Origin: a virus
Virus genome (UHGV): UHGV-1368191
Length of the DNA: 64,000 bases
Direction: 5' to 3' (one strand)
A program made the translations under genes and the position numbers. The notes beneath the pieces were generated by a model. That model did no database searches, was not told the origin of the DNA, and saw nothing but the letters and a program-made list of their open reading frames with translations. Below are positions 9,971-39,400 of the stretch, in pieces; the stretch's first letter is position 1; every line of letters starts with the position of its first letter.

Positions 9971-12862
9971 ATGACAGAGCAAGAATGGCTAAATGATAAT
10001 CAGCTCTCATTGGATATATGGCATAAAAAGTACCAAGTTGACAATGAGAGCTTTGAGCACTGGCTTGATAGAGTAAGTGGAGGAAACCAAGATATAAGAC
10101 AACTTATTCTTGAAAAGAAATTCCTGTTTGGGGGTAGGATACTAGCAAGTAGAGGAGTGACTGACAGAAGGGTTACTTATAGTAACTGTTATGTAATTGC
10201 ACCCCCAAGGGATAATATTGAATCTATCTTTGAAACTGCAAGTAAGTTAGCAAGAACTTATAGTTATGGAGGAGGCTGTGGTGTGGATATTAGCAACCTT
10301 AGACCTAAAGGTACTATAGTCCATAATGCAGCTAAAAGTACATCAGGTGCTATAAGTTTCATGGACTTCTATAGCTATGTTACTGGTCTTATAGGTCAGT
10401 CAGGCAGACGTGGGGCATTAATGATTAGTATTAGCTGTAAGCATCCTGACATTGAGGAGTTTATTAATCTTAAAACTAAAGCTGGAGTATGTGAAAAAGC
10501 TAACATAAGTATCAGAGTATCTGATGAATTTATGGAAGCTGCTATACAGGATAGGGATTGGATAACTGAATTTACAAGTCCTGAGACTGGTACTATAACC
10601 AAGACTTTCAAGGCAAAAGATTTGTTAAAACTCCTAGCTAAAAGAAATTGGGAGTGGGCAGAACCTGGATTATTATATTGGGATAGAATTGCTCATTATA
10701 ATATGCTTGATAATGATGATGCTTTTGCTTATGCAGGGGTCAACCCATGTCTTACAGGAGATAGCTTGATTCAAACAGTGGAAGGGGAAATTCCTATAAA
10801 GGAGTTAGTAGGAAGTACTCCATTTGTATATTGTATGGATTCTGATGGTAATCTTGCTATAAGAAAAGCTGTTAAGGTTTGGAAAACAAGAAAGAATGCT
10901 CAACTTGTTGAGGTTATAGCAGGTAAGGGAAGACTAATTTGTACTCCAGACCATAGAATATTTACTACTAATAGAGGTTGGGTTGAGGCTGCTAATCTTC
11001 AAAAAGGAGATAAAATAAAGGGTCTTAATAGACAAACTACAGGGCATAAATATTGTTCTGTAAGCCTTAGTGGCACTAAGTATGAGAAGGAACATAGATT
11101 TATTGCAAGACACTTCTATGATATAGAAGATATGGATGTTCATCATATTAATGATAATGGGTTTGACAATAGATTATCAAATCTTGAAGTTATCACTCAT
11201 GAGGAACATTCAAAACTTTCTAATACTGGAAGGGTTATTGAAGTTAATAGAGATGAAACTACTGGAAGGTATCTTCCTAAAGAAGAGCATACAGGTAGAA
11301 CCTGTAGAAACTTAGGAAAGGAAGTAGGTATTAATTGGTATATTCAAGAAGTAAGAACTCTTGATTATACTGAGGATGTCTATGACATGACTATAGAGGA
11401 CACTCATAACTTCATTGCTAATGGGTTTGTAGTTCATAATTGTGCTGAAGAGCCATTACCAGCAGGAGGCTCATGCTTATTGGGTAGTATTAACCTTAGT
11501 GAATTTGTAACTAATCCATTTACTGATAAGGCTAAGATGAACTGGATTAGTCTTGTAGAAGCTGTAGAGATAGCTATCTCAGGTCTTAACGAAGTACTTG
11601 ATGAAGGTATGATGTTACATCCTCTTCAAGAGCAAAGAGACTCTGTAAATAAGTGGAGACAAGTTGGCTTAGGTACAATGGGATTAGCTGATATGCTAAT
11701 TAAATTAGGTATTGCTTACGGTTCTAATAAAGCTCTTGAGATAACTGAAAGAGTATATAAGCTTATAGCAGCAACAGCTGTGCAAGCATCTATCAAATTA
11801 GCTACTTTTTCAGGATGCTATCCTATGTGTGATAAGGAGAAGTTAGCTAATTCCTCGTTCATTAAATCATTAAATCTTCCAGATGAAATGATTAGTGATA
11901 TAAGGACTTATGGATTAAGAAATAGTCAACTTCTTACTTGTGCTCCTACAGGTAGTATTGCTACCATGTTGCAAGTATCTACTGGAGTAGAACCTAACTT
12001 TGCATTAAAGTACACAAGAAAGACTCAATCATTGAATGGTAAAGATACTTATTATGAAGTATTTGCTAAAATAGTAGATGACTATATTGGTGATAGATAT
12101 GGTGAAGATATAAAACTTCCTGATTACTTTGTAGAGTCTAAGGATATAGCTTCTATTGATAGAATCAAAATGCAGGCAGTACTACAGAAGTACACTGATG
12201 CAAGTATTAGTTCTACAATAAATCTTCCTAAAGAAGCTACAGTGGAAGATGTGTATAACATCTATGTAGAAGCATGGAAGCATGGACTTAAGGGATGTAC
12301 AGTCTACAGGAGTGGATGCTTTAGGGAAGGTATTCTTACTACTAAAAAGCCTATCAATATGCAAGCTGTAGGTGCTCCTAAGAGACCTAAAGAGCTTCCC
12401 TGTGATATTCATAAGGTAAAGGTGAAAGGAGAGAACTTCATAGTATGTGTGGGTCTTTATGAGGAGAAACCATATGAGGTATTTGTCTTTAGGCTCAAGA
12501 ATAACATAGAGCTTACTGACACAAGGGGAACCATAACCAAGCTCAAGAAGGGTGTATATAGCCTTGAGTCAAAGGATTTGATAATAAATAACCTCCTTAA
12601 TACTGATATTACTGTTGAGGAGAAGGCTGCCACTCTGTATAGTTCTATGCTTCTTAGGCATGGAATCTCTCTTAAGTATATTATTAAGACAGCAAGGAAA
12701 GTCAATGATAATATAATCTCTTTCAGTAGTGCCATGTGTAGGGTACTATCTAAGTATTTACCTAAGGATACTGGGGAATCCTGTCCTGAATGTGGTGAGA
12801 AATTAATAAGAACTGGAGGATGTGTCTCATGTCCTTCCTGTGGTTATAGTAGATGTGAGTAA
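9971..12862 (+). CDS. ribonucleotide reductase large chain (class I/II-type fold, probably cobalamin-dependent class II-like), interrupted by an intein; C-terminal Cys-rich ribbon
   Basis: 'YGGGCGVDISNLRPKG' (first active-site Cys region). Thiyl-radical motif NPC(x)E reconstituted across the intein (AGVNP | intein | CAEEPLPAGGSCLLGSINL). N-terminal 'FLFGGRILASRG'. C-terminus 'CPECGEK...CVSCPSCGYSRCE'. Confidence 0.8.
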   Translation: MTEQEWLNDNQLSLDIWHKKYQVDNESFEHWLDRVSGGNQDIRQLILEKKFLFGGRILASRGVTDRRVTYSNCYVIAPPRDNIESIFETASKLARTYSYGGGCGVDISNLRPKGTIVHNAAKSTSGAISFMDFYSYVTGLIGQSGRRGALMISISCKHPDIEEFINLKTKAGVCEKANISIRVSDEFMEAAIQDRDWITEFTSPETGTITKTFKAKDLLKLLAKRNWEWAEPGLLYWDRIAHYNMLDNDDAFAYAGVNPCLTGDSLIQTVEGEIPIKELVGSTPFVYCMDSDGNLAIRKAVKVWKTRKNAQLVEVIAGKGRLICTPDHRIFTTNRGWVEAANLQKGDKIKGLNRQTTGHKYCSVSLSGTKYEKEHRFIARHFYDIEDMDVHHINDNGFDNRLSNLEVITHEEHSKLSNTGRVIEVNRDETTGRYLPKEEHTGRTCRNLGKEVGINWYIQEVRTLDYTEDVYDMTIEDTHNFIANGFVVHNCAEEPLPAGGSCLLGSINLSEFVTNPFTDKAKMNWISLVEAVEIAISGLNEVLDEGMMLHPLQEQRDSVNKWRQVGLGTMGLADMLIKLGIAYGSNKALEITERVYKLIAATAVQASIKLATFSGCYPMCDKEKLANSSFIKSLNLPDEMISDIRTYGLRNSQLLTCAPTGSIATMLQVSTGVEPNFALKYTRKTQSLNGKDTYYEVFAKIVDDYIGDRYGEDIKLPDYFVESKDIASIDRIKMQAVLQKYTDASISSTINLPKEATVEDVYNIYVEAWKHGLKGCTVYRSGCFREGILTTKKPINMQAVGAPKRPKELPCDIHKVKVKGENFIVCVGLYEEKPYEVFVFRLKNNIELTDTRGTITKLKKGVYSLESKDLIINNLLNTDITVEEKAATLYSSMLLRHGISLKYIIKTARKVNDNIISFSSAMCRVLSKYLPKDTGESCPECGEKLIRTGGCVSCPSCGYSRCE
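10748..11440 (+). mobile_element. intein (231 aa) with embedded HNH endonuclease domain, inserted in the RNR active-site NPC|E motif
   Basis: Starts 'CLTGDSLIQTVEG' (intein block A) right after extein ...GVNP. Ends '...NGFVVHN' followed by extein Cys (CAEEP). Internal HNH signature 'HHINDNGFDNRLSNLEVITHEEH'. Confidence 0.75.
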
Positions 12863-16871: not shown

Positions 16872-17130
16872 AGAATGTATAAATAATGAGAGTGACTGTC
16901 ATGTTCCTCCTGTGAATAAAAAGCTCTGGATAATAGAGTTTGAAATCAGGAATGATGGCAGGGGATGTGCAGTAGTAAAGGCTGGTAATCCTAATGAAGC
17001 AAGCAGGGTACTTAAATCTGAGGGACTATATAATGGCAGTCCTATAGATTATATGATCTATAGAATTGAAGAGATAGTACCTTCTCCTGAAACAATGCTT
17101 ATTTGTGAACAAATAGTTAATAAGGAATGA
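16861..17130 (+). CDS. hypothetical protein
   Basis: 89-aa ORF with ATGA overlap into the next gene. Confidence 0.35.
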   Translation: MVNKECINNESDCHVPPVNKKLWIIEFEIRNDGRGCAVVKAGNPNEASRVLKSEGLYNGSPIDYMIYRIEEIVPSPETMLICEQIVNKE

Positions 17131-17621
17131 AGCAGTTTACACAGAGAGAACTTATTAAGATATGTATAGCAAATGGTTTCCACTTTGAAAGAATGAGTGG
17201 AGACCATGCTGTATATATTAATAAGGAAGGAAGACATATCAGTATTCCCAATCATCTCAGGTGTGTAATAGCTAATAGACTTATTAAGGAGAATAATTTA
17301 GAAACTGATTTAAAAAAACTTAAAAGGGAAAGAAAAATGGATAATTATCCTACTATGTCTCAAATTGAAGAGAGTAATGCTCCTTGGAATGACTCTAAGG
17401 AACCTAAAGAAGTTGAAGTTATTGTAAGTATGACTATCAGTAAGGTAGTTAAAGTACAGGTCTCTGATTATGAAGTACTTGACAGCAAGGATGAATATGG
17501 TCAAAATGAAGTGGATTTTGATAACTGTGATTTGAAAACTGCTGTAGAGGAGCAAATCACTCTTCCTACTGATGTCTGTGAAGGTTGGTACATTGATGAG
17601 TTTGAAGCCCTAATATCATAA
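17127..17621 (+). CDS. HicA-like (YcfA-like) domain protein with ~100-aa C-terminal extension
   Basis: N-terminus 'RELIKICIANGFHFERMSGDHAVYINKEGRHISIPNH' follows the HicA pattern (ELIK.L...G....R..GSH..Y.......V.VP.H). Confidence 0.55.
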   Translation: MKQFTQRELIKICIANGFHFERMSGDHAVYINKEGRHISIPNHLRCVIANRLIKENNLETDLKKLKRERKMDNYPTMSQIEESNAPWNDSKEPKEVEVIVSMTISKVVKVQVSDYEVLDSKDEYGQNEVDFDNCDLKTAVEEQITLPTDVCEGWYIDEFEALIS

Positions 17622-18168: not shown

Positions 18169-18354
18169 TTGAATATGGTAATAACTAGAAGATTATATCG
18201 GATAGTACTAGAAAACTATCTTTCCTATCATGTGGCAGCTGACTCTATTGATGAAGCAATAAGTATTATGAGAAAATGGAGAAAGGACTGCAAGATTACT
18301 AGTGTAAGTAAAAGCAATGATGACGTAGTATTAACTAAAGAGGATGTACAATGA
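18169..18354 (+). CDS. hypothetical small protein
   Basis: 61-aa ORF with ATGA overlap into thyX. Confidence 0.3.
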   Translation: MNMVITRRLYRIVLENYLSYHVAADSIDEAISIMRKWRKDCKITSVSKSNDDVVLTKEDVQ

Positions 18355-20276
18355 GACTTATAAAACCATCATTTGAAATTTGGAAACAAGAACCTGGATT
18401 AGAAGGAATATATAAAGCCATTGAGAGAGCAGGGCGTGTATGCTATAGGTCTGAGGACAAGATAACAGAAGATAGTGCTAAGCCTTTTGTAGATAGAATG
18501 ATTAAAGCAGGTCACTGCTATACAGGAGATACAGAGGTACTAACTGAGAATGGTTGGATTAAATTTAGAGATTATAATGGTGAAAAAGTTGCTGTAATAA
18601 ATAAGGATTGTTCATTTAAAGGTTTTGAAAATCCAAAAAGAATAGTAAGTTATTCTTATAAAGGTAATTTTTATTATTATCCTTCACTAGGTATAGAAGT
18701 TACTGATGGACATAATATGTTTGGGATTTTCAGAGAAAGCAAAAACGACTTTTATAAAAACAATTCGTATTCTTTATTTAAATGCAATGGATATTATAAA
18801 GATAATAATGGCAGAGAAAAAACTTTAGGAGAAAGAATGTTTAAAACTCCAAGACATTGTCTAAAAAGCAAGTCTTTAAATCCTTATGGAGAGTTAATTG
18901 GGTTTTGGTTAGGAGATGGATGCTATAGTCCTGAAACTAAAAATAAATTAGTGTTTCATTTAAAGAAGCCAAGAAAAATAGAATATCTAAAACAATTATG
19001 TGAAGAACTGGGATATATTTTTGAAGAAAGAAAATCTAATTATTATACTGTTACTAATAATAATATAGGGAGTTCTTTTAATTCATTGTTTTATAATAAT
19101 GGCAAAAGAATATCATTACAGTACTTTCCATCATTAGATATAGCTTTTTCTATTATTGAAGGACTAATAAATTCAGATGGTAGTAGAGCAAAAAACACTA
19201 AAACTATAACTTTTACAAATACTAGTAAAAGTATAATTGATTGGTTATTAATATATGCTCCTATATGTGGTTATTCTATTTCTAACAGAGGTATTTCCCA
19301 TAATACTACTTTACATAATCCTGTATATAAAGTATTATTATTAGATACTAACTATACCTTAAATAATGATTCTAGAGATAAAGACTCTAAAGTTATTATT
19401 ACTAATAAAGTAGAGGAAGTCTATTGTGTTACAGTATCTACTGGATTAATAATGGTTAGGGGAATAAATGGGATTACTACTATTTGTGGTAATTGTGCTA
19501 TGTTAGAACATGGTACTGTATATTTAGCTATTCCAATGACTACTTATGCTCCTGAGGCAGTTAATATATATCATAACAATTCCTATTCAAAAGTAAATAA
19601 ATGTAATGAATTTATATTTACTGATAAATACGGAGATAAGGTTGCAGCATGGTGCGTAACAACTAATTTAAGAGTTTTAGTAGAAAATGATTGCTTAGAA
19701 GATTTAGAATTTCTTTGTGAACCTACAGAGTTCCATGAGAAAAGAGTTTGTGTACACTTTGTATGTGATAGAGGTGTATCACATGAGTTTGTAAGGCATA
19801 GAGTAATGTCTTTTGCTCAGGAAAGTACGAGGTATTGCAACTACTCTAAGGATAAGTTTAGTAATGAACTTACCTTTATTATTCCTTGTTGGTGTGATGA
19901 TATTCCTGATGCTTTAAGCCTAAAAGATAGTATGGATGTAAAGAAGTTTGTTTGGGGAACTGATAATTTGGCTGCTACAGTTGAAGAAAAAGGTGTAGTG
20001 AATAGGCAAGTTAGTAAGTTTACTCAAAGATTTCTATATGAAATGCAAGGAGATGAAGATACATATATAGGGCTTATAGCTGCTGGATATAAACCACAGG
20101 AAGCAAGAGCCGTTCTCTCTAACTCCTTAAAGACAGAATTAGTAATGACTGGCTTTGTATCTGATTGGAAACATTTCTTTGAGTTAAGATGTGCTGACAA
20201 TGCTCATCCTCAAGCCAGGGAATTGGCTATTCCTTTAAGAGAAGAGTTTATTAAAAGGGATTATATTAATGAATGA
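18351..20276 (+). CDS. thyX: flavin-dependent thymidylate synthase ThyX, interrupted by an intein
   Basis: ThyX signature 'RHRVMSFAQESTRY' (RHR..S..Q.S.RY). N-terminal extein 'KAGH|...|CAMLEHGTVYLAI' parallels ThyX 'HGHETPFEHIVFTF'. Extein total ~315 aa. Confidence 0.8.
   Translation: MRLIKPSFEIWKQEPGLEGIYKAIERAGRVCYRSEDKITEDSAKPFVDRMIKAGHCYTGDTEVLTENGWIKFRDYNGEKVAVINKDCSFKGFENPKRIVSYSYKGNFYYYPSLGIEVTDGHNMFGIFRESKNDFYKNNSYSLFKCNGYYKDNNGREKTLGERMFKTPRHCLKSKSLNPYGELIGFWLGDGCYSPETKNKLVFHLKKPRKIEYLKQLCEELGYIFEERKSNYYTVTNNNIGSSFNSLFYNNGKRISLQYFPSLDIAFSIIEGLINSDGSRAKNTKTITFTNTSKSIIDWLLIYAPICGYSISNRGISHNTTLHNPVYKVLLLDTNYTLNNDSRDKDSKVIITNKVEEVYCVTVSTGLIMVRGINGITTICGNCAMLEHGTVYLAIPMTTYAPEAVNIYHNNSYSKVNKCNEFIFTDKYGDKVAAWCVTTNLRVLVENDCLEDLEFLCEPTEFHEKRVCVHFVCDRGVSHEFVRHRVMSFAQESTRYCNYSKDKFSNELTFIIPCWCDDIPDALSLKDSMDVKKFVWGTDNLAATVEEKGVVNRQVSKFTQRFLYEMQGDEDTYIGLIAAGYKPQEARAVLSNSLKTELVMTGFVSDWKHFFELRCADNAHPQARELAIPLREEFIKRDYINE
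18516..19493 (+). mobile_element. intein (326 aa) with LAGLIDADG homing endonuclease
   Basis: Starts 'CYTGDTEVLTENGWIKF' after extein ...KAGH. Two LAGLIDADG motifs 'LIGFWLGDGCY' and 'IIEGLINSDGS'. Ends '...ITTICGN' followed by Cys(+1) 'CAMLEH'. Penultimate residue is Gly rather than the usual His. Confidence 0.7.
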
Positions 20277-23260: not shown

Positions 23261-23268
23261 TAATTTTG
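23261..23268 (+). promoter_or_regulatory. possible Bacteroidetes-type -7 promoter element (TAnnTTTG) upstream of the giant gene
   Basis: TAATTTTG lies between the terminator and the first ATG of the 3050-aa ORF (ATG at 23290). The ORF-track start at 23266 is a TTG. Confidence 0.2.
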
Positions 23269-26200
23269 CAAAAACTAATTTTATTAAATATGTTAAGAGT
23301 TTATTGCACAGTAGTTACTCCTGAAATAAATGAAATGGCGGAGAAAATAGGGTTACATCCACAAATAGTTAATAACCTAATTTGTGTATGGCAAACCCTT
23401 AATAATAAACCAAATCAATATCCTTCAGAGCAAGAACTACAAGAATTAATTAAAAACAGAGAAAGCTATAATGACGCTTTTAAGTATGCTATTCCTTATT
23501 ATACTAGAAGCGAAGAAAAAGGCTATGGAGTACACTTTGATGAGAATGATAACCTAGTTATTAATCCTTATCCAAAAGATACGCAGCTTAAGGATGCCTT
23601 AAATACACTTCCTTTAGGAGTTCCTGAAGATCTTAAATCTGAAATAACTACGTTTAAAGAGCTTTACATAGTTCAGTTATATGCTGAAAGATTATTACAG
23701 ACAGATCCTAATTATGATATACAGGATAATCCAAATGCATATATAGCAGCTGTGACTGCCTCTATTAGAATGCTTATGGAAGGCAAAAAGAGGCATCTAT
23801 ATGATACTACTAGTACTCCTGTTCCTACAAATCCCCAAGTAGAAAGTGAACAGAAGACTACTAAGACTCCTACCATTGAAAAATCTATAGAGTATACACT
23901 TCCTGGACAGGGAAAACAGACTTATACTATAAAGGGTACACATATTTATAATAAAGATGGTAAAGAGGTCTTTAAAGAAGATAGTGTACACAGAAATAGG
24001 ATATTTGCCAATTTAGCGGTTAAAGAAGGAAGAGCAGTAGTGGTAGAACATGGAGATACTAGTTATGTAGTTAATAACAAAGGACATATTATCTCAGTTG
24101 CTACAGGTAAGATGATGCAGTGGGGAGAAGAAAATAGTAATAGAAAAGCTATTCTGGAGGAAGCTAGGAAAAAGTTCTCCTCCAAGATATCTACTCAACA
24201 AAGTCAAAAAACTGTAACTTCTACTTTAGATACTAGGACTATATCTAACAAGACAGCCTCTTTTGGAGTTACTATATCAGAAAACATAATGGGTAATTAT
24301 TCTGAATGGCTTAAAGATAACCCAAATGGTATAGTAGCTTACAGGGTGGACAAGGAACATTTTAATACACCACAGCTTGTTCAAAGAGGTATTATAGGTA
24401 ATCCATTTAATTGGCAAAAGTATGGTGAGGGGAAATCCCTTCAGATGTTCTATGATTGGTTAACCACAGGTAATAATTTTGGGGAGGAAAGTGCTGCTGA
24501 GGAATATAGAAAGGCTATTATTAATAAAATACTAAGTTCTCCAGTGGGTACTCCTATTCTATACTACAAAGAGAAGTACCAGCCTAGTCACGCCACTATG
24601 ATTGGGTATTTAATTAACCATAAAGATCTACTTAATACTGGGATTGTTTCCAGTACCGAAATCACTACTTCTAAAGGAACTGATTATCCCTCTAGGACTA
24701 GAGAAAATGCTGATTGGTCTGATATAACTATGGCTTTATTTACTGTAAGGTCTAATGGAGAAACTTTAACAGCTCAGGCTGCTGGTTCAAAAGACAGAAA
24801 ACAAATTGGAAACAGAACTATAAGAAATACCAAGGATAAGTATATAGAAGCTGAACTTAGCGATGATTTAAATAACCAAGCTACAATTATTGCTAATAAT
24901 CTTGAAAAACAAATAAAAGAGAAAGGTCTTCCTACCAAGGGAATAAAGCTTAATATAGCTGGTAACGGTATCTATTCTTTTAGTGAAGGAGTATCACAAG
25001 AATATCTTAATGATTTAGTTTCTAGTGTTATTCAGATTCTTCAACAAAAGGGTATTACTATATCTAAGATAAGAAGTGGAGGACAGACTGGTGTAGATGA
25101 GGCTGGTATTATAGCTGCCCAAAGATTGGGTATTCCTAATGAAGTACATACTACTGCTGATTTTAAATTTAGAGGCAGAGATGGACAAGATATAAGAGGA
25201 GAAGAGAGATTTAAGGCAAGATTTATAAATCAACAAAGCACTGAAGGTGATAACAATAGAAGAGATATCCAGATAAAAGGGGAAAACATTTCTAGTAAGG
25301 GTTCAACTTTTGCTAAAATGTTGACTAATCCTGGGAATGATCTTACAGTAGTCTATAAAGGCAAGACATTTAGGAATGCTGAACATGCTTATCAAACATG
25401 GAAATCAGGTGAATTTGATGAAGCTGCTTTTAATAGTACCGCTTTTAAACCTGTAGGCAAAAAGCCTGTAAATAAGTCCTCAAATTTTCAAACTATGGTA
25501 GAGATACTCACTGCCAAGTTAGAGCAACATCCTGAATTGATTCAGGGCATCAATGACAGAAGGGGCATTGAGTATCTAAATAGGTCATGGCATGAAGTTA
25601 CTGGTGATGAATACTGGGAAAAACAAGGTAACTTTATGAAGGCTCTTATCCAAGCTTATAATAGAGTTAATTCTGACCAAAATACACAACAGGAAGAGGG
25701 AACTCCTGAAGACCTTCCTGAAATAGGTATTCCTGAAGCACTTGCAAGCCAGGTACAGGTAAATAAGGAAAGTCCAAGAGCTATTCTTTCAAGGCAAATG
25801 AGTCCTCAAGAAATAACTAGGAGGGAGGATATGATAGCCAGGGATTTCTCTGATATTATTAATGATGCCCTAAGTGACATGCAAGAAGGTCTTAGAAATG
25901 ATATAGAGAATGAAAAAGACCCACTAAGAAGGCTGCAATTATCCCAGAAATTAAATGCACTGGAAGATCCTGTCAAAGGTAGAAGAGCCGCTATAACAGA
26001 GCTTGGAATCGAGGAAATCTTGAATAGAATGAAAGAAGAATATCAAGAATGGATTGACATGGACAGCTCTGAGATAGACTCTTATCTAGGAAAAGGGAAA
26101 GCTGACTATGTAAAACAAGCTTATCAAAAAGTTCTTGATAATTTTGATCTCCTGTTTGATGAGGCAAGCTCTATGATAGAACAGAAAGAGCACTTAAGAA

Positions 26201-29200
26201 TAACGAGAGGAGATACTAAAGAAGTACAGAATACAGAAGACCAAGAACAAGTTTTAGAGGAGGAACTTGGTGATGATGATAGTGGTAACAGAGTAAGTGG
26301 GAATGAAGGGTATACATTCAAAATTAGATTTGTGGATCCTTTTACTTCTATTAGGGCTGAAACTAGGAAAGTCCTTAGTGACATAAAACAGATTGATACA
26401 GAAGGGAATGTAGCCACTGATGATTTAGGTAGAACTATTTATGTTAGGGAAGACTTTGCTCACTCAGCACTGCTGGCTTCCCTTAATTGGATGGATAACC
26501 CTAATGATTTCAGTGTTAAGAATGCAGATGGTACTTATAGCTTACCCGCATTGGAAAATGCCGCTATGATATATCCTTGGATTAATCAGGTAATAGAGGA
26601 ATTAGAGGCTGATCCAAACCTGATAAGTGTCTTCTATAATGATTTCAGAAAAGACTATATATCTTATTGGATGCAAAGAGATGGAAAAGTATTCCCTATG
26701 AATTCTCCTATAGACTATGAAGGAACTTTTAGGGGAATACAACGTAATTATGAGAGTGGCTCTCCACAGGATGATGACTCTATTTTTGATGTTAACCTGA
26801 AAATCAGTAAAGCTAATATAAGGAAAGCCAGAACCCTACTTACTAATGTAAGAAAGAGCCTTAGTAAAGCTGTGTATAGTGAGGATATGGAAACTATAGT
26901 TCCTTCTATACAAAAACTTCTCAATATAATTGGATTTAGCTCTACTAACCTGAATTTGACCCAATTAAAGGATATAAGTAATGTTGGGTTAGCGAACACA
27001 ATCCTTGATAGTATAGCTAGAGTACTTGATAACAGTGATACTCTTCAAGAAGGACAACACTATGTTGATACTGTTAGAGACCCTCTTAATATAATAGCTA
27101 AATTAGTAGGCAAAGTTACTGAACTGGATGCTCAAGTAACATTTAGGCAAGGTAAGAACTCATATCCTTCATATGCTGTTCCAAATTATATAGAAACTGT
27201 GTTTAAAAAGCTCCTTAAAAAGGATGATGACCAGAGGAATGAGTATTTACAAAATGAATTTGGAAAGTATGCCTGGTTCAAGAATAAAAACGGGGAATGG
27301 AATAATGAATGGCTTAGGCTTATAGAAGAGGATCCCAATGTGAGAGACATGGTAACCCTGGTTAATATGTTCAATATGGAAGGAGTTGACTATGAAAACT
27401 GGTCACCTAGTCTTATTACTACAGGGTTCATGAATATGTATTTTGCTATTGATGAGAATCCAGACTTGGATACCCAATATGGATATTATAACTTCCCCAT
27501 ATTCTCTGATACAAAGATGGCCACTTTTGTCAAATTCATTAAATATACTGGTGACTATAGAAGTAAATTAATCCCATTATATAGAAAACTAGTTAATCAA
27601 GAATTAAAGAGAATAAGACTGGTAGAGGATAGGGCTAAAAAGGGTATTCCTCCAATAAGTAATTTTGATAAAAGAGGAAAAAGATTCTGTTTTCTTCCTG
27701 AACTTAATACTCTTAAATTAGATTTTGAGGGTAAAGAAATGACTCTCCTTGATATAGTGAGAGAGTTAAATAGGAGGGGTAATGTAAAGAGTATTGATGC
27801 CTACATTGATAGTGCTATAAACTGGACTATAGATAAACTGGCTGATGACTTTATCTCTAATCATAAAGAGGTAGTAAGTGATGAGAGTCTTGATAAAATA
27901 AAAAAGGCTACTGGAGTAAAGAGTGATGAGGCTGCTGTTGACAAGATTAGGGAATATGTATGGAATCAAATATTCGCTACTTCACAAATGGTTCAAATGG
28001 TAACTACTGACTTAGCCTATTATGCGAGTGATACTGATTTTCAAAAGAGATTTAAGGAGGTATATGCAGCTGGAACTAAGTTGAATACTAACAGTAAATA
28101 TGGAAGAAAGACAGAAAGAACTGTCTATATCAGGGACAATATAGTAACTTCTCCTACTTATATCCCTCTTAAGGAGATGTTTACTAAAGCTTATAAAGAG
28201 GAAAGAATAACCAAGATGGATTTGGATTCTATTCTTTATAAGTTCAGAAACATAAATAGTGTAGATGGACAAGCTTATAGAAGTTTAAGTTCTTATAGAT
28301 CTATACTGGATATGCTAGGAAGGTGGACTCCTAAGATGGAGGAAGCTTTTGATAGATTAAATAAAGGCAATTGGGATATTAGTGACTTTGATATAATATG
28401 GCAGACTATTAAACCTTTTGTCTATGGCCAAGTTGAGACTCCTGATGGGTTAGGGGGACTACTAAGAACCCCTCATCAAAACAAGAACTCAGAGTTTCTA
28501 CTATTAGCTACCTATCAAGTCCTAGGAACAGTATTGAATAACTCTCCACAATTAAGAGGACTTAATAAGTTCATGGAAACGAATAATATTGATGTAGTCC
28601 AATTTGAATCTGCTGTGAAAGTAGGTTGTAGTGGAGTTATAGACATTAATGTAAGTCCTTCAAAAATTAAAAAGGCATCTGAAGACAGATTTATAGAGGT
28701 TAATGGAGAGAAATATGATGTTCCTGATATCAGTGGGTTGAACATCAGTAAAGCTTTTGACCAGATAAAGGAGTACTTTGATAATAGACTGGAAAGAGGC
28801 AGTATTACACAGCAGGAGTATAATAATATCATTGATTACCTTAAGCCAACAGAAACTGAGGTATTTAATACCTTAGTTGAGAATACAAGAAAGAAGATTA
28901 ATGATACTGATGTTCTTACTAAGGATAATTACAACAAGACTACAGTGCATGAAATAAGCTATGATGATTACATGATAGCCCAGCCTACTCCAGAGCATCT
29001 GTTTGATGTTGAATCTATAATAGGTTCTCAGTTCAGGAACCTTATATACTCAGATCTCCCTGAAGATATAGAAATTAATCTTGGAGATATCACTATTAAG
29101 GGAAGGGACAATGTAAAGAGATATTATTTCTCTCTTATGGTTGAGAACCTCTTGGATTCATATAAAGAGGTCAATGAGGTTTTTTCAAGCATAGAAACTC

Positions 29201-32200
29201 TTCAGAACAGGCTACTTTCTATTATTAAAGGCAACCCTAAATATAATAGGGATTTGCTTAATGCCCTGGAAATAGTTGAAGTTAATGGAAGAAAGGTATT
29301 CAATGTTCCCTTTAATGATAAAATAACTTCTACTAAACTAGAGGAGCTACTTACCTCTATATTCAAGAATGGAATAGCTAAGCAATACATTAAGGGTGCT
29401 TCCTGTATATTGGTATCTAATTTTGGATTTACCAATGAGCTAGAGGTAGTAAGAAGGAGAGATGGTAGTATTGAAGCTGTAGAGTGTTATTTACCTGCAT
29501 ATAGTAGAAAGTTCTATGAGCCATTTTTAACAGAAGTGAAAAATAAAAAAGGTGTAACTATAGGATATAAAATAGACTATAATAAGTTAAAAGGTGCTGA
29601 TAAGAAACTTCTTGATTTTGTAGGATACAGAATACCTACTGAGGCTAAATACAGTATGATTCCCTTAAGAATAAAGGGATTTCTTCCTCAACAAAATGGT
29701 AGTGCTATAATGCTCCCTTCAGAGATTACTACTCTCAGTGGTTGTGACTTTGATGTTGACAAGCTGTTTATGATGCTTCCTGAGTTTAAAAGAGAGCAAA
29801 TATATGATGTAGACAGAGCTTGGAGAGACTTCTATAATGATCCTAGTAATAGTGATATTGTTAATGAAATTAATAAGAATATCACAGAGGGAGCTAAGAG
29901 AAAGAATATGTCTGAAAGAGACTTTCTACAGCTTGTTTATGATAATGGCTATAAGAAGTATGATCTTTCAGAAACAGCTCAAGAGAGATTTAGTGACTGG
30001 TTTAAAGGAAGAAAGAAGAACTACTTTGTCGAGGAGAAATTTGAGGTAATTAATTATGACCATAGCAAAGAACCAAAAGATAACAGTAGGGAACAGAGAA
30101 ATAATGAGATAATAAATATCGCTTTTCAAATCCTTACTAATAAAATGGTGGGAGAGGACTCACAAAGTCCTGGTAACTTTGATGTACTTAAACATGATGC
30201 TAGAGTCAGGGAAATCACCAGTAATATAAATTATGTTCACGAGTACATGAGAAGAAATAGAATCAAGAACTATGATGATTTTATATATGAGGTTCTTAAT
30301 GACTCCTTGGAGAATCTTACTGAATTTCTTAAGGAAGTAAAGGAAGAAAGAAATTCTCTTACTGTGGATACATTTATCTATTATCACAACCAAAATATGG
30401 TGGGTAAAGTATTAGTTGGAATCTATGCTAATAATACCACTATGCAAGCTAAATTCCAGGGAACTGGTCTAGCATTAAAAGATGGATTTGAGTTCACTAT
30501 AGATGGAAGGGTAATAAAGAGCTTATCTGATATTTACACAACTGAGAATGGTGCTAAGGTTAAGATATCAAAGAATTGTCAACAATTCTCAGCTGCCTCA
30601 GTTGATAATGTAAAGGACCCAGTTTTAGCTTTCTTAATGCAGAATAAGAACACCGCCAATACAGCTTGTTTTATGCTAAGAGCTGGAATGAGTATCCCTG
30701 AAATAGGAGCCTTCTTTAATATCCCCATTGTAAAACAATGTATAGAGGAAACAGGAGGACTTAGGGAGTTAAGTTCCTATATTTCCAATGTAGAAACATC
30801 TTTGGCTGAACTATTATCCATGAGAGAATATAAGGTTAAGCCTATAAATTCTACTACTTTAGTAGACATAATGCTCACCACACTGGAGTCTAGAGGTATA
30901 ACACCTGAAACTCCTATAGAAAGACAAATCCAAATAATAGAAAAAGAACTTCAATTAGCAAAGTTATTATTGAGAATATCTAAATATGGAGATGCTCTTG
31001 GGGAGACAGTACAGGCTTATAGAGCTGATTCTCCTAAGGCTGCTATAGGAAGAAGTGTTGCCATAGCTAAGATACAAACACTAAATATAGATAGGCTTAT
31101 AAGGAAGTCAAGACTCTCTGATTTTCCTCTTACTGGAATAGAGAATATAGTAAGGAATAATTATATTACCCCTGATATGACTATAGACCAAATGAGGGAA
31201 GCTCTTATGAATTCCAAGATGCCCATGCTTCAAGCATTCTACTCTTTAGGAATAGAATTTGGTGTTAAAAAACTGGCTGATTATTTTGCTACAGCTGGAG
31301 ATTATGCTAATCAAGTAATTGATTTCGTGAATACTCTTTCTATAAGACCTTTAAGAGAAAGAGATGTTCAAACCATCTATAATGCTCTTATACAATTTGC
31401 TCTTAGTGATACAGAGTTATTTGGGGAGAGCAGTGAGATGTCTTTAGAGGAAAAGAGAAATTATTACTTATCAGTATTTCCTAAGGAATTTACTAGGATT
31501 GTAAGTGAAAACCCTGATATAGCTAAGATACCTTTTATACAAAAAATCAGTAATAGTCCCTCTGGAATTATAATGAGGGATTCCTCAAGAAATAGTCACC
31601 AATTGATAGATTTATTAATGAATAGTGCTGATACATTACTATATATGGATAGTAATCCTGTAGCATGGAAATTGGCATTTCATCTATTCAATTATGCCTA
31701 TTTCAAAGAAGGACTTAATTATGGTCCCAGTAGCTTCTCTCAATATTTCAGTACTGTTTGGAAAACATCATTCCCAGAGTATATAGATACCCTTAGGGAG
31801 CTTAATACTTCAATGGGAGTCTCTGATAAATGGAGCAGGTTTATAACACAATACTATGCCAACAATCCAGTGATGGCTCCTACTATCGTTGTACCAAGAG
31901 ATTATTACTCAGAAGATAGGAAGATAGTAAGGATACCTAGTAAAGAAGTTTCCAATAGAAATTTAGTAGTTCCAACACCTGTTGAGTTCTTTTATGATCC
32001 CAATGAACTTACTGTGTATAGACTTAACACTGAATCTATGGAAAATGAAATTCTACAATATGATAGAATATCAACAACACCTGGTAACCTTTATGATGCT
32101 AATAAGGAGTCTAATGATATGGTAGCTGAAAATGAGAAATATCAAAAATCAGCTGAAAAGATGATACAAGCTGAGAAAGAAAGAAGAAATCCTGGTGTTC

Positions 32201-32418
32201 AAGGAGGACAAATTACAGGAAATAGTAATCCAGCTATAAACAATAATGAGGATATATCTTTATTAGGAGTTGATACTGGAACTATTGATGCTATATTGGG
32301 AGAACTGGATGCTGCCGTTGAGGCATCTGAAGAGTATAGTCCTGAAGAGGGATTAAAAGAAGAAGGGTTAAATCCATGTAAAAAAGGTAATGGTGACAAT
32401 GTAATAAAGGAGTTATAA
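23266..32418 (+). CDS. giant virion-packaged protein, putative virion RNA polymerase (two-barrel type) with N-terminal SLOG(YpsA-like) and NADAR domains
   Basis: 3050-aa ORF. 'GCDFDVDKLF' (nt 29746-29760) fits the DxDxD metal-binding motif of two-barrel RNAPs and crAss-like vRNAPs. 'IRSGGQTGVDEAGIIAAQRLG' (nt ~25072-25130) fits SLOG/YpsA. 'TFAKMLTNPGNDLTVVYKGKTFRNAEHAYQTWK...RGIEYLNRSWHEVTGDEYWEKQGNFMKALIQAY' (nt ~25290-25680) fits NADAR. The start codon is uncertain: the first in-frame ATG after the TTG is at 23290, 'MLRVY...'. Confidence 0.55.
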   Translation: MQKLILLNMLRVYCTVVTPEINEMAEKIGLHPQIVNNLICVWQTLNNKPNQYPSEQELQELIKNRESYNDAFKYAIPYYTRSEEKGYGVHFDENDNLVINPYPKDTQLKDALNTLPLGVPEDLKSEITTFKELYIVQLYAERLLQTDPNYDIQDNPNAYIAAVTASIRMLMEGKKRHLYDTTSTPVPTNPQVESEQKTTKTPTIEKSIEYTLPGQGKQTYTIKGTHIYNKDGKEVFKEDSVHRNRIFANLAVKEGRAVVVEHGDTSYVVNNKGHIISVATGKMMQWGEENSNRKAILEEARKKFSSKISTQQSQKTVTSTLDTRTISNKTASFGVTISENIMGNYSEWLKDNPNGIVAYRVDKEHFNTPQLVQRGIIGNPFNWQKYGEGKSLQMFYDWLTTGNNFGEESAAEEYRKAIINKILSSPVGTPILYYKEKYQPSHATMIGYLINHKDLLNTGIVSSTEITTSKGTDYPSRTRENADWSDITMALFTVRSNGETLTAQAAGSKDRKQIGNRTIRNTKDKYIEAELSDDLNNQATIIANNLEKQIKEKGLPTKGIKLNIAGNGIYSFSEGVSQEYLNDLVSSVIQILQQKGITISKIRSGGQTGVDEAGIIAAQRLGIPNEVHTTADFKFRGRDGQDIRGEERFKARFINQQSTEGDNNRRDIQIKGENISSKGSTFAKMLTNPGNDLTVVYKGKTFRNAEHAYQTWKSGEFDEAAFNSTAFKPVGKKPVNKSSNFQTMVEILTAKLEQHPELIQGINDRRGIEYLNRSWHEVTGDEYWEKQGNFMKALIQAYNRVNSDQNTQQEEGTPEDLPEIGIPEALASQVQVNKESPRAILSRQMSPQEITRREDMIARDFSDIINDALSDMQEGLRNDIENEKDPLRRLQLSQKLNALEDPVKGRRAAITELGIEEILNRMKEEYQEWIDMDSSEIDSYLGKGKADYVKQAYQKVLDNFDLLFDEASSMIEQKEHLRITRGDTKEVQNTEDQEQVLEEELGDDDSGNRVSGNEGYTFKIRFVDPFTSIRAETRKVLSDIKQIDTEGNVATDDLGRTIYVREDFAHSALLASLNWMDNPNDFSVKNADGTYSLPALENAAMIYPWINQVIEELEADPNLISVFYNDFRKDYISYWMQRDGKVFPMNSPIDYEGTFRGIQRNYESGSPQDDDSIFDVNLKISKANIRKARTLLTNVRKSLSKAVYSEDMETIVPSIQKLLNIIGFSSTNLNLTQLKDISNVGLANTILDSIARVLDNSDTLQEGQHYVDTVRDPLNIIAKLVGKVTELDAQVTFRQGKNSYPSYAVPNYIETVFKKLLKKDDDQRNEYLQNEFGKYAWFKNKNGEWNNEWLRLIEEDPNVRDMVTLVNMFNMEGVDYENWSPSLITTGFMNMYFAIDENPDLDTQYGYYNFPIFSDTKMATFVKFIKYTGDYRSKLIPLYRKLVNQELKRIRLVEDRAKKGIPPISNFDKRGKRFCFLPELNTLKLDFEGKEMTLLDIVRELNRRGNVKSIDAYIDSAINWTIDKLADDFISNHKEVVSDESLDKIKKATGVKSDEAAVDKIREYVWNQIFATSQMVQMVTTDLAYYASDTDFQKRFKEVYAAGTKLNTNSKYGRKTERTVYIRDNIVTSPTYIPLKEMFTKAYKEERITKMDLDSILYKFRNINSVDGQAYRSLSSYRSILDMLGRWTPKMEEAFDRLNKGNWDISDFDIIWQTIKPFVYGQVETPDGLGGLLRTPHQNKNSEFLLLATYQVLGTVLNNSPQLRGLNKFMETNNIDVVQFESAVKVGCSGVIDINVSPSKIKKASEDRFIEVNGEKYDVPDISGLNISKAFDQIKEYFDNRLERGSITQQEYNNIIDYLKPTETEVFNTLVENTRKKINDTDVLTKDNYNKTTVHEISYDDYMIAQPTPEHLFDVESIIGSQFRNLIYSDLPEDIEINLGDITIKGRDNVKRYYFSLMVENLLDSYKEVNEVFSSIETLQNRLLSIIKGNPKYNRDLLNALEIVEVNGRKVFNVPFNDKITSTKLEELLTSIFKNGIAKQYIKGASCILVSNFGFTNELEVVRRRDGSIEAVECYLPAYSRKFYEPFLTEVKNKKGVTIGYKIDYNKLKGADKKLLDFVGYRIPTEAKYSMIPLRIKGFLPQQNGSAIMLPSEITTLSGCDFDVDKLFMMLPEFKREQIYDVDRAWRDFYNDPSNSDIVNEINKNITEGAKRKNMSERDFLQLVYDNGYKKYDLSETAQERFSDWFKGRKKNYFVEEKFEVINYDHSKEPKDNSREQRNNEIINIAFQILTNKMVGEDSQSPGNFDVLKHDARVREITSNINYVHEYMRRNRIKNYDDFIYEVLNDSLENLTEFLKEVKEERNSLTVDTFIYYHNQNMVGKVLVGIYANNTTMQAKFQGTGLALKDGFEFTIDGRVIKSLSDIYTTENGAKVKISKNCQQFSAASVDNVKDPVLAFLMQNKNTANTACFMLRAGMSIPEIGAFFNIPIVKQCIEETGGLRELSSYISNVETSLAELLSMREYKVKPINSTTLVDIMLTTLESRGITPETPIERQIQIIEKELQLAKLLLRISKYGDALGETVQAYRADSPKAAIGRSVAIAKIQTLNIDRLIRKSRLSDFPLTGIENIVRNNYITPDMTIDQMREALMNSKMPMLQAFYSLGIEFGVKKLADYFATAGDYANQVIDFVNTLSIRPLRERDVQTIYNALIQFALSDTELFGESSEMSLEEKRNYYLSVFPKEFTRIVSENPDIAKIPFIQKISNSPSGIIMRDSSRNSHQLIDLLMNSADTLLYMDSNPVAWKLAFHLFNYAYFKEGLNYGPSSFSQYFSTVWKTSFPEYIDTLRELNTSMGVSDKWSRFITQYYANNPVMAPTIVVPRDYYSEDRKIVRIPSKEVSNRNLVVPTPVEFFYDPNELTVYRLNTESMENEILQYDRISTTPGNLYDANKESNDMVAENEKYQKSAEKMIQAEKERRNPGVQGGQITGNSNPAINNNEDISLLGVDTGTIDAILGELDAAVEASEEYSPEEGLKEEGLNPCKKGNGDNVIKEL

Positions 32419-36432: not shown

Positions 36433-39400
36433 CTAGTACATACAATGGAATAAGATTTCTTTTTCAAGAATAGTCATATTACTGTATTCTTTTGGAGATA
36501 TCTTTCTTTCAGATAAATAATCTTTCTGTTCTTTAGATAGTTTATTATAAGAAAGTTTAATCTCATGATATTGTTTTATCTCTATGGTGTCTATAGCTTC
36601 TGTGTTAACATCTCTGTCAATATATTTCCCTTTTAATATATCAGTATAAACTCTGTCAAGATAGAACCAATTACTATTAAAATGATTTAATAGTGCTTTT
36701 AATCTAGACCATAGATTCTTCAGTCTGCCTACAAAAGTCTCTTCATTCTGCATATATCTTCTAAAGTCTTCAGCCATTCTTTCTTCTAGCTCTATAGGAC
36801 TCAAATTACCCCATTGCCTTTTAGCTGATTTAAAGGCATTCTCAAGCTCTTGGTCAGTCATTAGAGTATTGAATACAAAATGGAAGGCCTCATGATAAGC
36901 AGTTCCTCTAGCCGCGTTTTTATAGAGTGTTATAGCTCCATCTTTAAATTGTCCCCAAGCTTTTCCTCCAGGAATTTTTATTAGAGTACCTACTATTCTG
37001 ATTCTATCTTCTTCACTTAATTGAGGAAGTAACTCCCCTATCACCTCTAATTCCCTACCTATTAGAGATTCACTCTCTCCAATGTACTTTCTATATCTAA
37101 TATCATTATCAGTTCTAGAGAATGTTCCAATATTATCTGTAGCTGATTTAATTTGGTTAGGATTAAATACTACTAATTCTACACCATTCTTACCTCTTAT
37201 ATCATTCATGTTAAAAGCACTTCTAAAAACATTCATATTAGAAAATCCTATAGCACCATCATTGTTAGAAGTACTATGTTTATCTATGCCCTTTCTTGTG
37301 TAAATATCTCCAGATTTATATCCAGAAGGTTTATCAACAATAACAGGATTTTTAATATTAAGATATACAGGTATATCGTGAGATTGTGAAAGTTTTTCTA
37401 CAATTTTTCCTACTATAGTAGAATTATCTCTCCAAGGTTTAAACCACAATCCTTCTCCTCTTTTAGATTTATTTAAATCAAAAGTACTAAAATCAGCTCT
37501 TGTACTATGATAAACAACTAAAGGTTCACCATTTTCATCTACTACTTTTGATACATTTCTATCTCCACTGTTTATATCGTCTGCTTGTGGTAATTTATCG
37601 TTAAGTATTCTATAAGTAGTGTGATTCCAATGTCCTACTTTAGGTTTTTCAGATACCACCTCAGCAATTCCATCTTTAACTAAAGATTTCCATAAAGCAT
37701 CTTCGGCATCAGAATTAGATCTATCAGAATATAAAATTTTACCTTCTGATTTGGCAATATTAGCAAGAGCTAAATGAGCTTTTTTTCCATATCCTTTTCC
37801 TCTATATTCTTCTTCTATTTCTGTGGCAGCTCCTATAGATCCTCCCATTCTAATTTTATCTTTAGTTTCAATAACAGGAATTTCTCCTATATATTTATCA
37901 CCTAAAAATATAACTCTTTTACCTCCATCAGGAGCCATATCAGCATCAAATAATGCTTCACTTACAGTAACTCCTTGGTATGTAGCAGATGTAATACTAT
38001 TAGGAATATCTTGACTTTCTCTAAATCTAGAAGAACGGGCAACTCTCTCCCAATTACCAAACCATTTCTTAAATGCTTTAGTTCTCACTTGAGCATATTG
38101 TTTAGGTGTAAGGTTTGATGGTCTACTATTAGGAGCTAGGAGTCTACCTTGAAAATCTCTAGGGGCTTTATCTAGAATAGATTGTTCTTCCTTAGTTAGA
38201 TTAGAAGTGCTAACTTCTCTATTCTTAGGTCTAAGTTGTTCAGCAACAAGGTTATTCAGTTCCTCATCAGACATATTAGGGATAATCTTAGCATCTAAGT
38301 ACTGAGCAAGGGTTTTCAGTATAGGAGTTTTTAGTTTACTGAGACCTTGTATATTATCATCATTTAGTCTGTCTATTCTTGCTTGCCATTTTTTAGGCTT
38401 GAAAACAGCTTTCTTTTTTAAGGTTTCCCTAATAGAAGCTACATCTTGCCTAGGCTCTGAAGTATCAGGTTTATTTTCCTCAGCTTGAGTACTTTGTTCA
38501 GAAGGTTGAGGAGTCGCTTTCTTAAAGTAGTTATCTACATCTATAATAGGTAATGCTATATTAGGTACTTTATTTACTCCTATAACAGTATCATCATTTC
38601 CATAAACAATGGTAAAGGGAACTATAGCTACACCTTCAGTCTTTTTACCAAACCTATCATATAGTAGCTTAGCATAGGAAGATACTTGATAGGTATGGTA
38701 CTCTTTAGTGGACATTGTTTGCCCCCAAGCAGAATTCACTCCTTCATAGCGAAATCCAGCAAAAGGACCCACAGAAGTCTTTACATCATAAATATAGTAG
38801 TTGCCCTTATTATCTATGAACAGTAAATCAACTTCTCCCGCTATTCTTCTCCCATCCAGATATTTTTGATAGAGAACTATATTATTGGCAAATACTGACC
38901 ACTTATGATCATTTAACCACTTATCTAAGGACTTAAGATACTCTATGATACTATTATAGGCCTTATCTGACATAAAATCAGGCTTAGTGGTCTTTCCTGT
39001 ATTAAAGAAGTCTCTTACTATAGTATCAACAGCACTCCCAGTTCTTAGTGCTCTTTGGCTGTTAGCAGTACCAGTATTATTTGAATTAGAAGGAAGTACA
39101 TTATGCACCCTTTGGTACTTATGATACTTGCCATCACTCTCTTTTATATAGTAATAGTTACTATCAGTTCTATTCCTATCTATATTTGATTGATCTGGTA
39201 TTATAGTACTTCTTACAAAGTTTCTCTCCCTACTGGCTTTTACCTCATCTTCAGCTTCCTTTGGAGCATCTTGGATAGATTTAGCTCCTTCCTTTTTCCC
39301 TTTTATTATGGGGTCTATGGTATAGAAATCATTAACTGTATGCAGGGTCCACTTTTCAAGATTGGTTGTAGCTAATTCACCTATAAGACTATTATAATCT

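Follow-up and report, generated by a model that had tools for sequence, protein, structure and literature searches.

NADAR enzymes, among them that of phage T4, strip ADP-ribose from guanine in single-stranded DNA (ssDNA) and RNA (PMC11543638, PMC11125620, PMC11825919, PMC11833690), and phage NADARs (AdfN) permit replication in DarTG1 hosts (PMC11825919). In the E. coli C7 NADAR, E88 and K95 are needed for guanine de-ADP-ribosylation (PMC11543638), and one last-strand position is occupied by Glu in NADARs of the YbiA type, by Asp in those linked to DarT1 and by His in those of phages (gp30.3) (PMC11543638, PMC11125620). A 2022 survey described phage NADAR and SLOG domains as 'typically standalone' and placed NADAR in ~1% of non-myovirus phages (PMC9503650). 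For crAss-like phages, gp47 of PhiCrAss001 (262.5 kDa) has been seen in purified virions by mass spectrometry, as a cargo protein that is ejected into the host (PMC10172136). Here we describe a giant virion RNA polymerase gene of this kind in a stretch of 64,000 nucleotides from the virus genome UHGV-1368191 (the whole stretch is referred to as the window), the product of which carries a SLOG domain and a NADAR domain ahead of the polymerase body.

The SLOG and NADAR assignments hold. We give about even chances to the interpretation that the first ~820 residues of the protein are an array of accessory cassettes and that three of these, a compact domain termed D1, the SLOG domain and the NADAR domain, form a packaged and injected counter-defence module that removes ADP-ribose. 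An initial annotation had proposed a SLOG–NADAR pair at 24940–25700, within the N-terminal third of a giant packaged RNA-polymerase-like protein, and had suggested de-ADP-ribosylation of phage DNA or NAD salvage as its function. The location in the N-terminal third is correct, and the quoted motifs (SGGQTGVDEAG and others) are found in frame in the open reading frame (ORF) 23266–32418. Both domains are present in the proposed span, but its start splits the SLOG domain, which begins ~280 nt upstream, and the pair belongs to a trio, as D1 lies directly upstream and travels with both. NAD salvage finds no backing, as no NAD-synthesis genes were seen among the 20 left-arm ORFs scanned. The present analysis goes beyond that annotation in the DUF4326-like domain, in the true boundaries and permutation of the SLOG domain and in the recognition of a divergent NADAR subfamily below the Pfam threshold.

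A homologue of crAss-like virion RNA polymerases

The ORF runs uninterrupted from 23266 to 32418 on the + strand (9.15 kb; 3050 codons from TTG 23266). Its real start is likely the ATG at 23335 (MAEKIG), giving 3027 aa, and residues are numbered throughout from TTG 23266. Residues 1801–2578 match PDB entry 6VR4 (phi14:2 gp66, 'DNA-dependent RNA polymerase') at E 2.9e-19, and it is on this entry that the link to phi14:2 gp66 rests. From ~aa 850 onwards the ORF is collinear, at 35–50% identity, with the 2608-aa 'putative RNA polymerase' PhiCrAssBcn1_13 of a Bacteroides phage (Kehishuvirus); the collinear alignment begins at ORF aa ~851 and subject aa 295, and the N-termini of the two proteins align by eye. 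Similarity to other giant proteins likewise sets in at aa ~824–853 (blastp), and the metal-binding DFDVD motif (aa 2161–2165) aligns with the DFDVD of PhiCrAssBcn1_13. The window and PhiCrAssBcn1 also have a gene order in common: the giant gene (+), a gene of ~1300 aa (+) and a gene of ~2400 aa on the opposite strand. The closest polymerase body among 50,697 phage genomes is 38% identical, with no near record.

These alignments establish that the giant ORF encodes a homologue of the virion RNA polymerase of crAss-like phages. The continuous 9.1-kb ORF and the dozens to hundreds of homologues found per domain rule out chance similarity and a mis-called frame. Judged by size and genus, PhiCrAssBcn1_13 is likely the counterpart of PhiCrAss001 gp47, for which alone among these polymerases presence in virions has been documented, and by analogy the giant polymerase of the window would itself be packaged. 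The label of a giant packaged RNA-polymerase-like protein, used in the initial annotation, is justified because of this homology to crAss-like virion polymerases.

A SLOG domain with swapped halves

The fragment aa 461–665 scores 31.7 bits against the Pfam cpYpsA family PF12694 (curated cut-off 26.2), and aa 466–656 match phrog_10774 at 1.4e-17. A SLOG family profile built from 34 sequences matches PDB entry 3IMK (a 'putative molybdenum carrier protein' with a cpYpsA structure) at E 1e-14, in two swapped pieces, and the SLOG/YpsA-type assignment is thereby upheld. The domain shares with cpYpsA (PF12694, 3IMK) the GGQTGxD loop and the RT-x2-N ... D-x-T motifs. Its own motifs are Y-x2-RT-x2-N-x4-D-x-T (aa 474–488), GE-x2-T (aa 498–502) and NIAGN (aa 563–567), together with the Gly-rich loop SGGQTGVDEAG, which is invariant in the family. 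In contrast to the ~145 aa of cpYpsA, the window SLOG spans ~190 aa, and the order of its halves is opposite. The Gly-rich loop comes first in PF12694 and 3IMK, whereas in the window aa 469–526 align to PF12694 profile positions 48–103 and aa 602–625, which hold the loop, to positions 1–24. This swapped order is a further circular permutation of the cpYpsA arrangement, common to the whole phage clade.

All 19 invariant residues of the SLOG family are kept in the window (Y474, R477, T478, N481, T488, A490, G498, E499, T502, N563, A565, G566, N567, G605, G606, Q607, T608, G609 and D611), which argues that the domain is not a decayed remnant; relative to its relatives it has an insertion of ~20 aa. 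Separately, one crAss record tags part of its polymerase gene 'DprA-like', DprA-like being a SLOG relative. In 72 Vibrio phage records (ICP1 and relatives), SLOG domains of the permuted type, 31–34% identical, are encoded by a gene of their own. In ICP1-like phages, this gene stands beside a helicase gene: in ICP1 and several relatives, the SLOG match adjoins or overlaps a feature annotated as the accessory helicase helA or as a Dda-like helicase. These helicase neighbours suggest a DNA-linked role for the permuted SLOG clade.

A divergent NADAR domain

A profile of 30 members of the NADAR family can be aligned by hhalign with 107 columns of E. coli YbiA, at a probability of 89.9% and E 1.7e-6, and 4 of the 30 members match Pfam NADAR (PF08719) individually, the best at E 6e-4. 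The AlphaFold model of the domain (predicted local distance difference test score (pLDDT) 86.9) has the alpha+beta fold of NADARs, with core helices and small flanking beta hairpins. Its top PDB match in Foldseek is YbiA (2B3W; E 9.6e-5, probability 1.00, template modelling (TM) score 0.57), followed by the ADP-ribose-bound Phytophthora NADAR (8BAU; probability 0.96, TM 0.57). The remaining PDB matches are noise, the third having a probability of 0.05 and all of them ≤0.08. The NADAR assignment is thus borne out by profile and by fold.

Glu706 and Lys713, in AEHAYQTWK, form a Glu-x6-Lys motif the spacing of which is identical in YbiA and T4 gp30.3; both residues are invariant in that alignment and correspond to E88 and K95 of the E. 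coli C7 NADAR. Together with His776, each is conserved in at least 90% of the NADAR family. His776 is the sole highly conserved polar residue in the last strand of the family. The Tyr of the D-x-YW motif follows it at a distance of seven residues, just as it follows the Glu in the VEH of YbiA; hhalign shifts this pairing by one residue. From its place in the motif, His776 is presumably equivalent to the last-strand position of phage NADARs. The outcome that would have refuted the initial annotation was thus not seen: profile and fold similarity to NADARs is significant, and the expected Glu and a conserved His, as well as the Lys, are present.

A word-indexed search returned 11 close NADAR homologues, one of them labelled DUF1768 by its source, and an exhaustive profile search of 1.84 billion representatives returned at least 649 metagenomic family members at E <= 0.001. 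With the NADAR piece as query, tblastn at E up to 1 produced no meaningful match in any of the 50,697 reference phage genomes. Single-sequence searches of PDB sequences with the NADAR piece and with D1 plus SLOG gave nothing useful, and a narrow 12-sequence NADAR profile gave no useful PDB match. Against the Pfam-positive NADAR of a related phage protein (P0030), the family profile reaches an hhalign probability of 4%, with only the Glu/Lys motif aligned. On these comparisons, the window NADAR represents a divergent subfamily rather than a canonical member. Membership of the T4 gp30.3/AdfN clade (PF08010) was considered and rejected, as there is no PF08010 hit and hhalign against T4 gp30.3 gives a probability of 0.5%. 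A DarTG-like toxin–antitoxin system with a DarG1-type antitoxin was likewise rejected, as the last strand has His and not Asp and the domain is embedded in a structural gene; no ADP-ribosyltransferase gene was found among the 20 left-arm ORFs scanned.

Two further modules upstream of the SLOG domain

D1 carries the motifs GNPF (aa 378–381) and PSHAT (aa 440–444). Its best viral fold matches are DUF4326 proteins, at non-significant scores (probability 0.80, E 0.17; 7 among the top 40). D1 contains no Cys, and the whole of aa 41–1474 (nt 23383–27688) is Cys-free; canonical DUF4326 proteins, by contrast, presumably have Cys-His at the place corresponding to the PSHAT of D1. From the model, D1 is possibly a Cys-less, divergent DUF4326 or rhodanese-phosphatase-like domain, a lead that fits the context, membership being unproven. 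Profile searches of NCBIfam, Pfam and PDB sequences found no match for D1, and tblastn at E up to 10 found no meaningful match in the 50,697 phage genomes. In other phage proteins (P0024, P0230, P0231, P0236, P0257 and P0261), D1 is fused to DUF1848 (PF08902), uracil-DNA glycosylase (UDG; PF03167) or adenylosuccinate synthetase (PF00709), partners that hint at a nucleic-acid or nucleotide substrate. D0, further upstream, has no match in Pfam. It recurs at other positions in other giant polymerase-like proteins and adjoins a NADAR-like domain in P0094 and P0107.

The modules behave as exchangeable cassettes

D1, SLOG and NADAR recur in giant polymerase-like proteins from metagenomes. Among all fetched proteins, scanned with local hidden Markov models, 157 have a NADAR of the window type, and D1 and/or SLOG are also present in 25 of them, a co-occurrence that speaks for a functional link between the domains. 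The domains occur in the orders D1-SLOG-NADAR, NADAR-D1-SLOG, SLOG-NADAR, NADAR-SLOG, D1-NADAR, NADAR-D1, SLOG-D1 and D1-SLOG. Carriers of at least 1500 aa (n = 74) are mostly giants (up to 6296 aa) similar to the polymerase body, in which the NADAR stands before, inside or after that body. Free-standing counterparts of the D1–SLOG–NADAR domains exist as proteins of 100–250 aa. Each domain was analysed separately because a joint MAFFT alignment of the three with 80 homologues misplaced SLOG relatives on D1 and NADAR and was discarded.

The region before ~aa 825 varies between relatives, and the body is conserved after it. A comparison of related virion polymerases located one such change precisely. 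The polymerases of PhiCrAssBcn1 and PhiCrAssBcn13 are 97% identical over 232 aa after the junction and 87% identical over 95 aa before it, and they differ by a clean insertion of 196 aa that is exactly the SLOG domain, present in PhiCrAssBcn1 and absent from PhiCrAssBcn13. The insertion is flanked by a repeated linker (LSPAFEAP / LSNAFDTP) encoded by an imperfect direct repeat of ~21 nt, and it looks like the gain or loss of a cassette through intragenic recombination. Of the 104 phage records in which a homologous polymerase body was found, 7, all crAss-like, have the SLOG, and none has the window-type NADAR or D1. Such a distribution would be expected if the modules can be dispensed with and selection on them fluctuates, and not if they were parts essential for transcription.

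Table 1. Positions of the cassettes, their carrier gene and other features (window coordinates unless a record is named)
Feature	Position (nt)	Strand	Basis or remark
Giant virion RNA polymerase gene	23335..32418	+	ORF list, translation, 6VR4 match, PhiCrAssBcn1_13 homology
D0, conserved module (aa ~198-315)	23857..24210	+	blastp 34-58% identity to P0100, P0094, P0127, P0107
D1, compact alpha/beta domain (aa 340-456)	24283..24633	+	family of 57 proteins; model pLDDT 86.2
cpYpsA-type SLOG domain (aa 465-656)	24658..25233	+	Pfam PF12694, phrog_10774, 3IMK profile match
SLOG Gly-rich loop SGGQTGVDEAG (aa 604-614)	25075-25107	+	
Divergent NADAR domain (aa 672-803)	25279..25674	+	AlphaFold/Foldseek, hhalign vs YbiA, sub-threshold Pfam
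NADAR motif YKGKTFRNAEHAYQTWK (aa 697-713)	25354-25404	+	in frame
NADAR motif WHEVTGDEYWEKQGNFMKALIQAY (aa 775-798)	25588-25659	+	in frame
Candidate catalytic residues of NADAR	Glu706 25381-25383; Lys713 25402-25404; His776 25591-25593	+	family conservation
Conserved polymerase body (aa ~825-2870)	25738..31875	+	PhiCrAssBcn1_13 collinearity, 6VR4 match, other giants
DFDVD motif (aa 2161-2165)	29746-29760	+	
C-terminal tail NPCKKGNGDNVIKEL with lone Cys3038	32371..32415	+	Cys counts over giant homologues
SLOG indel, Kehishuvirus	L001 6018-6650 (PhiCrAssBcn1) vs L005 2512-2620 (PhiCrAssBcn13)		
Prokaryotic JAB-domain gene and adjoining ThiF/E1-like gene	3643-5716		JAB 21.1 bits, cut-off 25 (sub-threshold); ThiF/E1-like 55.8 bits
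Selfish elements: HNH/NUMOD endonuclease gene; ribonucleotide reductase intein with HNH; LAGLIDADG insertion in ThyX	7643-8791; 9971-12862; 18351-20276		
HicA-toxin-like domain in 164-aa protein	17127-17621		29.2 bits vs cut-off 27

The C-terminal Cys and the rest of the window

Giant cargo and polymerase-like proteins are poor in Cys (0.18% overall in the set P0001–P0273), and a Cys nevertheless stands within the last 10 residues in 78% of the 74 giant homologues, where 1.8% would be expected and a control segment gives 1.5%. The polymerase of PhiCrAssBcn1 has 3 Cys, one of them at −9, and the 2484-aa neighbour in the window (36433–43887, − strand, C-terminus near 36433) has a single Cys, at position −3. 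A C-terminal Cys is also found in many small proteins that have domains in common with the giants. This lone C-terminal Cys may be a signal for packaging, ejection or anchoring.

Elsewhere the window has the make-up of a typical crAss-like replication arm, with genes for primase, UDG, an intein-containing ribonucleotide reductase, dUTPase, PolA and ThyX, the ThyX gene being unusually long (641 aa). Its load of selfish elements is heavy (Table 1), and the HNH/NUMOD endonuclease gene among them is free-standing. By their profile scores, the JAB-domain and ThiF/E1-like genes would form a ubiquitin-like conjugation and deconjugation pair within the phage replication module. A HicA toxin is annotated in the part of the PhiCrAssBcn1 genome equivalent to that of the HicA-like domain.

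Discussion

The biochemistry established for NADARs, together with the fact that the module rides on a polymerase that is taken to be injected, leads us to favour a pre-packaged de-ADP-ribosylation and clean-up module. Lying within the polymerase chain, the module would enter the capsid along with it and pass into the cell together with the DNA, so that it could act ahead of all phage gene expression. With three domains of the kind that removes or breaks down ADP-ribose, the phage would probably deliver, ready-made, a countermeasure to a bacterial defence in which phage DNA or RNA is marked with ADP-ribose. The NADAR domain would hydrolyse the N-glycosidic bond between ADP-ribose and the base, the model substrate being guanine in ssDNA or RNA as modified by ADP-ribosyltransferases of the DarT1 or ScARP type. 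The SLOG and DUF4326-like domains might then bind or break down the released ADP-ribose or related nucleotides, through N-glycosidic cleavage and removal of phosphate. Placed on the polymerase, the module would sit next to the DNA and RNA that need to stay unmodified, and the net result would be that early transcription of the incoming genome is shielded from the ADP-ribosylation defence of the host.

A bolder version, which we consider unlikely, sees the N-terminal region of crAss-like virion polymerases as a readily exchanged rack of pre-packaged counter-defence enzymes, with the NADAR, SLOG and DUF4326-like trio working in cis with the polymerase as a device that cleans template or transcript. 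ADP-ribose would then be stripped from guanines of the just-injected DNA or of nascent RNA, so that the first round of transcription would escape DarT-type defence, and the lone C-terminal Cys of the cargo proteins may belong to the same packaging and delivery system.

Several observations weigh against a packaged de-ADP-ribosylation module. On the sequence side, Pfam NADAR (PF08719) gives the window domain E 0.022 and 15.4 bits, under the cut-off of 35.1. The equivalence of His776 rests on motif position, because the domain has no detectable sequence relationship to T4 gp30.3, and the alignment there is uncertain by one residue. The DUF4326 assignment of D1 is weak, and because D1 is without Cys, Cys-dependent phosphatase chemistry is excluded. 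What we infer comprises the packaging of this protein, its enzymatic activity, its substrate and the defence countered; activity and substrate count among the reservations for that reason, as does the presence of the N-terminal region in the mature virion protein, which is presumed. The T4 and YbiA NADARs, although active in vitro, did not rescue cells from DarT1 toxicity (PMC11125620); anti-DarT function is therefore not guaranteed by the fold. In addition, Iyer et al. favour soluble ADP-ribose derivatives as the targets of phage sets of NADAR, SLOG and DUF4326 (PMC9503650).

That last point leads to the main rival of de-ADP-ribosylation, in which the injected trio degrades soluble ADP-ribose-derived signals or toxins (cyclic ADP-ribose isomers and the like) made by TIR/SLOG-type or other NAD-consuming defences, with NADAR and SLOG cutting N-glycosidic bonds and the DUF4326-like domain taking off terminal phosphates. 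Such a role has been predicted for phage NADAR, SLOG, Macro, Nudix and DUF4326 domains that co-occur (PMC9503650); viral SLOGs belong mostly to a YpsA-like clade linked to the sensing of cyclic ADP-ribose (PMC9503650), and the many orders of the trio fit a multi-step breakdown better than a single de-modification step. We nevertheless judge it unlikely. All NADARs tested biochemically act on base-linked ADP-ribose in DNA or RNA (PMC11543638, PMC11125620, PMC11833690), and the clade is without documented activity on soluble signals. The fusion to a polymerase and the fusion partners of D1 (UDG, DUF1848) point to nucleic acid, and the related SLOG gene of Vibrio phages lies beside or overlaps a helicase gene.

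Because the cassettes are dispensable and the active-site residues are conserved, two further explanations are less likely still. Housekeeping for the polymerase, whether by handling NAD-derived 5′ caps or initiating nucleotides, by cleaning up by-products of RNA repair or by early local nucleotide salvage, is invited by the physical fusion to an RNA polymerase. The families involved include the YbiA riboflavin-intermediate N-glycosidase and the LOG phosphoribohydrolases (PMC11125620, PMC9503650), and NADAR domains of RNA viruses share polyproteins with RNA-dependent RNA polymerase (PMC9503650). We find this improbable in view of the near-identical polymerases with and without SLOG, the 104 phage records that have the polymerase body and none of which has the window-type NADAR, the variable position of the cassettes within the protein and a last-strand His in place of the Glu that defines the housekeeping branch of YbiA; nor were NAD-salvage genes found among the left-arm ORFs scanned (n = 20). 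It is equally doubtful that the domains keep their folds only, as non-catalytic ligand sensors or as structural or packaging modules. Some SLOG clades are indeed nucleotide sensors without catalysis (PMC9503650), and Johannesman et al. contrast catalytic NADARs with another one from a phage for which enzymatic activity is apparently not required (PMC11825919); the missing Cys of D1 and the ~20-aa insertion in the SLOG domain would fit as well. Set against this are the full complement of invariant SLOG residues and the NADAR Glu, Lys and His kept in the window, and the free-standing 100–250-aa versions, which argue against a purely structural role.

If the de-ADP-ribosylation module is active, it would show how crassviruses guard the very first step of infection and would point to defence by ADP-ribosylation as an important pressure in Bacteroidota. 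Natural polymerase variants with and without single cassettes (PhiCrAssBcn1 and PhiCrAssBcn13) would also provide a tractable test system. Were the cis version true, the phage group most abundant in the human gut would have a viral RNA polymerase with an enzymatic anti-defence activity of its own. The virion packaging of ADP-ribose-processing enzymes has so far been mainly a comparative-genomic prediction centred on myoviruses, and phage NADARs able to overcome DarTG1 became known only in 2025, in the form of free-standing early proteins.

Comparison with known systems

The domain families, their viral association, the idea of virion-packaged enzymes that target ADP-ribose and NADARs as anti-DarT factors are already known. 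The literature searched, which mostly excludes subscription journals, contained no link between crAss-like phages and NADAR or ADP-ribose biology and no description of these cassettes in a crAss polymerase. The DUF4326–SLOG–Macro–NADAR associations of Iyer et al. 2022 involve the same domain families, fused or co-occurring in DNA viruses (PMC9503650), and the 'polyvalent' virion proteins discussed there (citing Iyer et al. 2017) embody the same idea of packaged and injected enzymes that target ADP-ribose (PMC9503650). That survey makes no mention of crAss-like phages (PMC9503650), whereas the domains of the window are fused within a crAss-like polymerase.

T4 gp30.3/AdfN and the phage anti-DarT NADARs have in common with the window domain the NADAR fold, the Glu-x6-Lys motif and, as we align it, the last-strand His (PMC11825919, PMC11125620). 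Both T4 gp30.3/AdfN and the window NADAR are phage-encoded and both would be expected to act early in infection, but AdfN is a free-standing early-gene product made after injection, whereas the window NADAR is a covalent part of a virion polymerase, beside a SLOG and a DUF4326-like domain. E. coli YbiA (2B3W) and the Phytophthora NADAR (8BAU) are the only meaningful structural matches. The profile alignment with YbiA spans the whole window domain, in which His apparently takes the place of the last-strand Glu that marks the YbiA branch; sequence identity to YbiA and 8BAU is 12–19%, and the window NADAR is a domain of a 3050-aa protein and not a stand-alone enzyme. As for the carrier, phi14:2 gp66 (6VR4) and PhiCrAss001 gp47 have a homologous polymerase body with the DFDxD motif, as in the window. 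The difference lies in the N-terminal accessory region, which is by far the larger in the window and consists of D0-D1-SLOG-NADAR there, of SLOG only in PhiCrAssBcn1 and of none of these modules in PhiCrAssBcn13.

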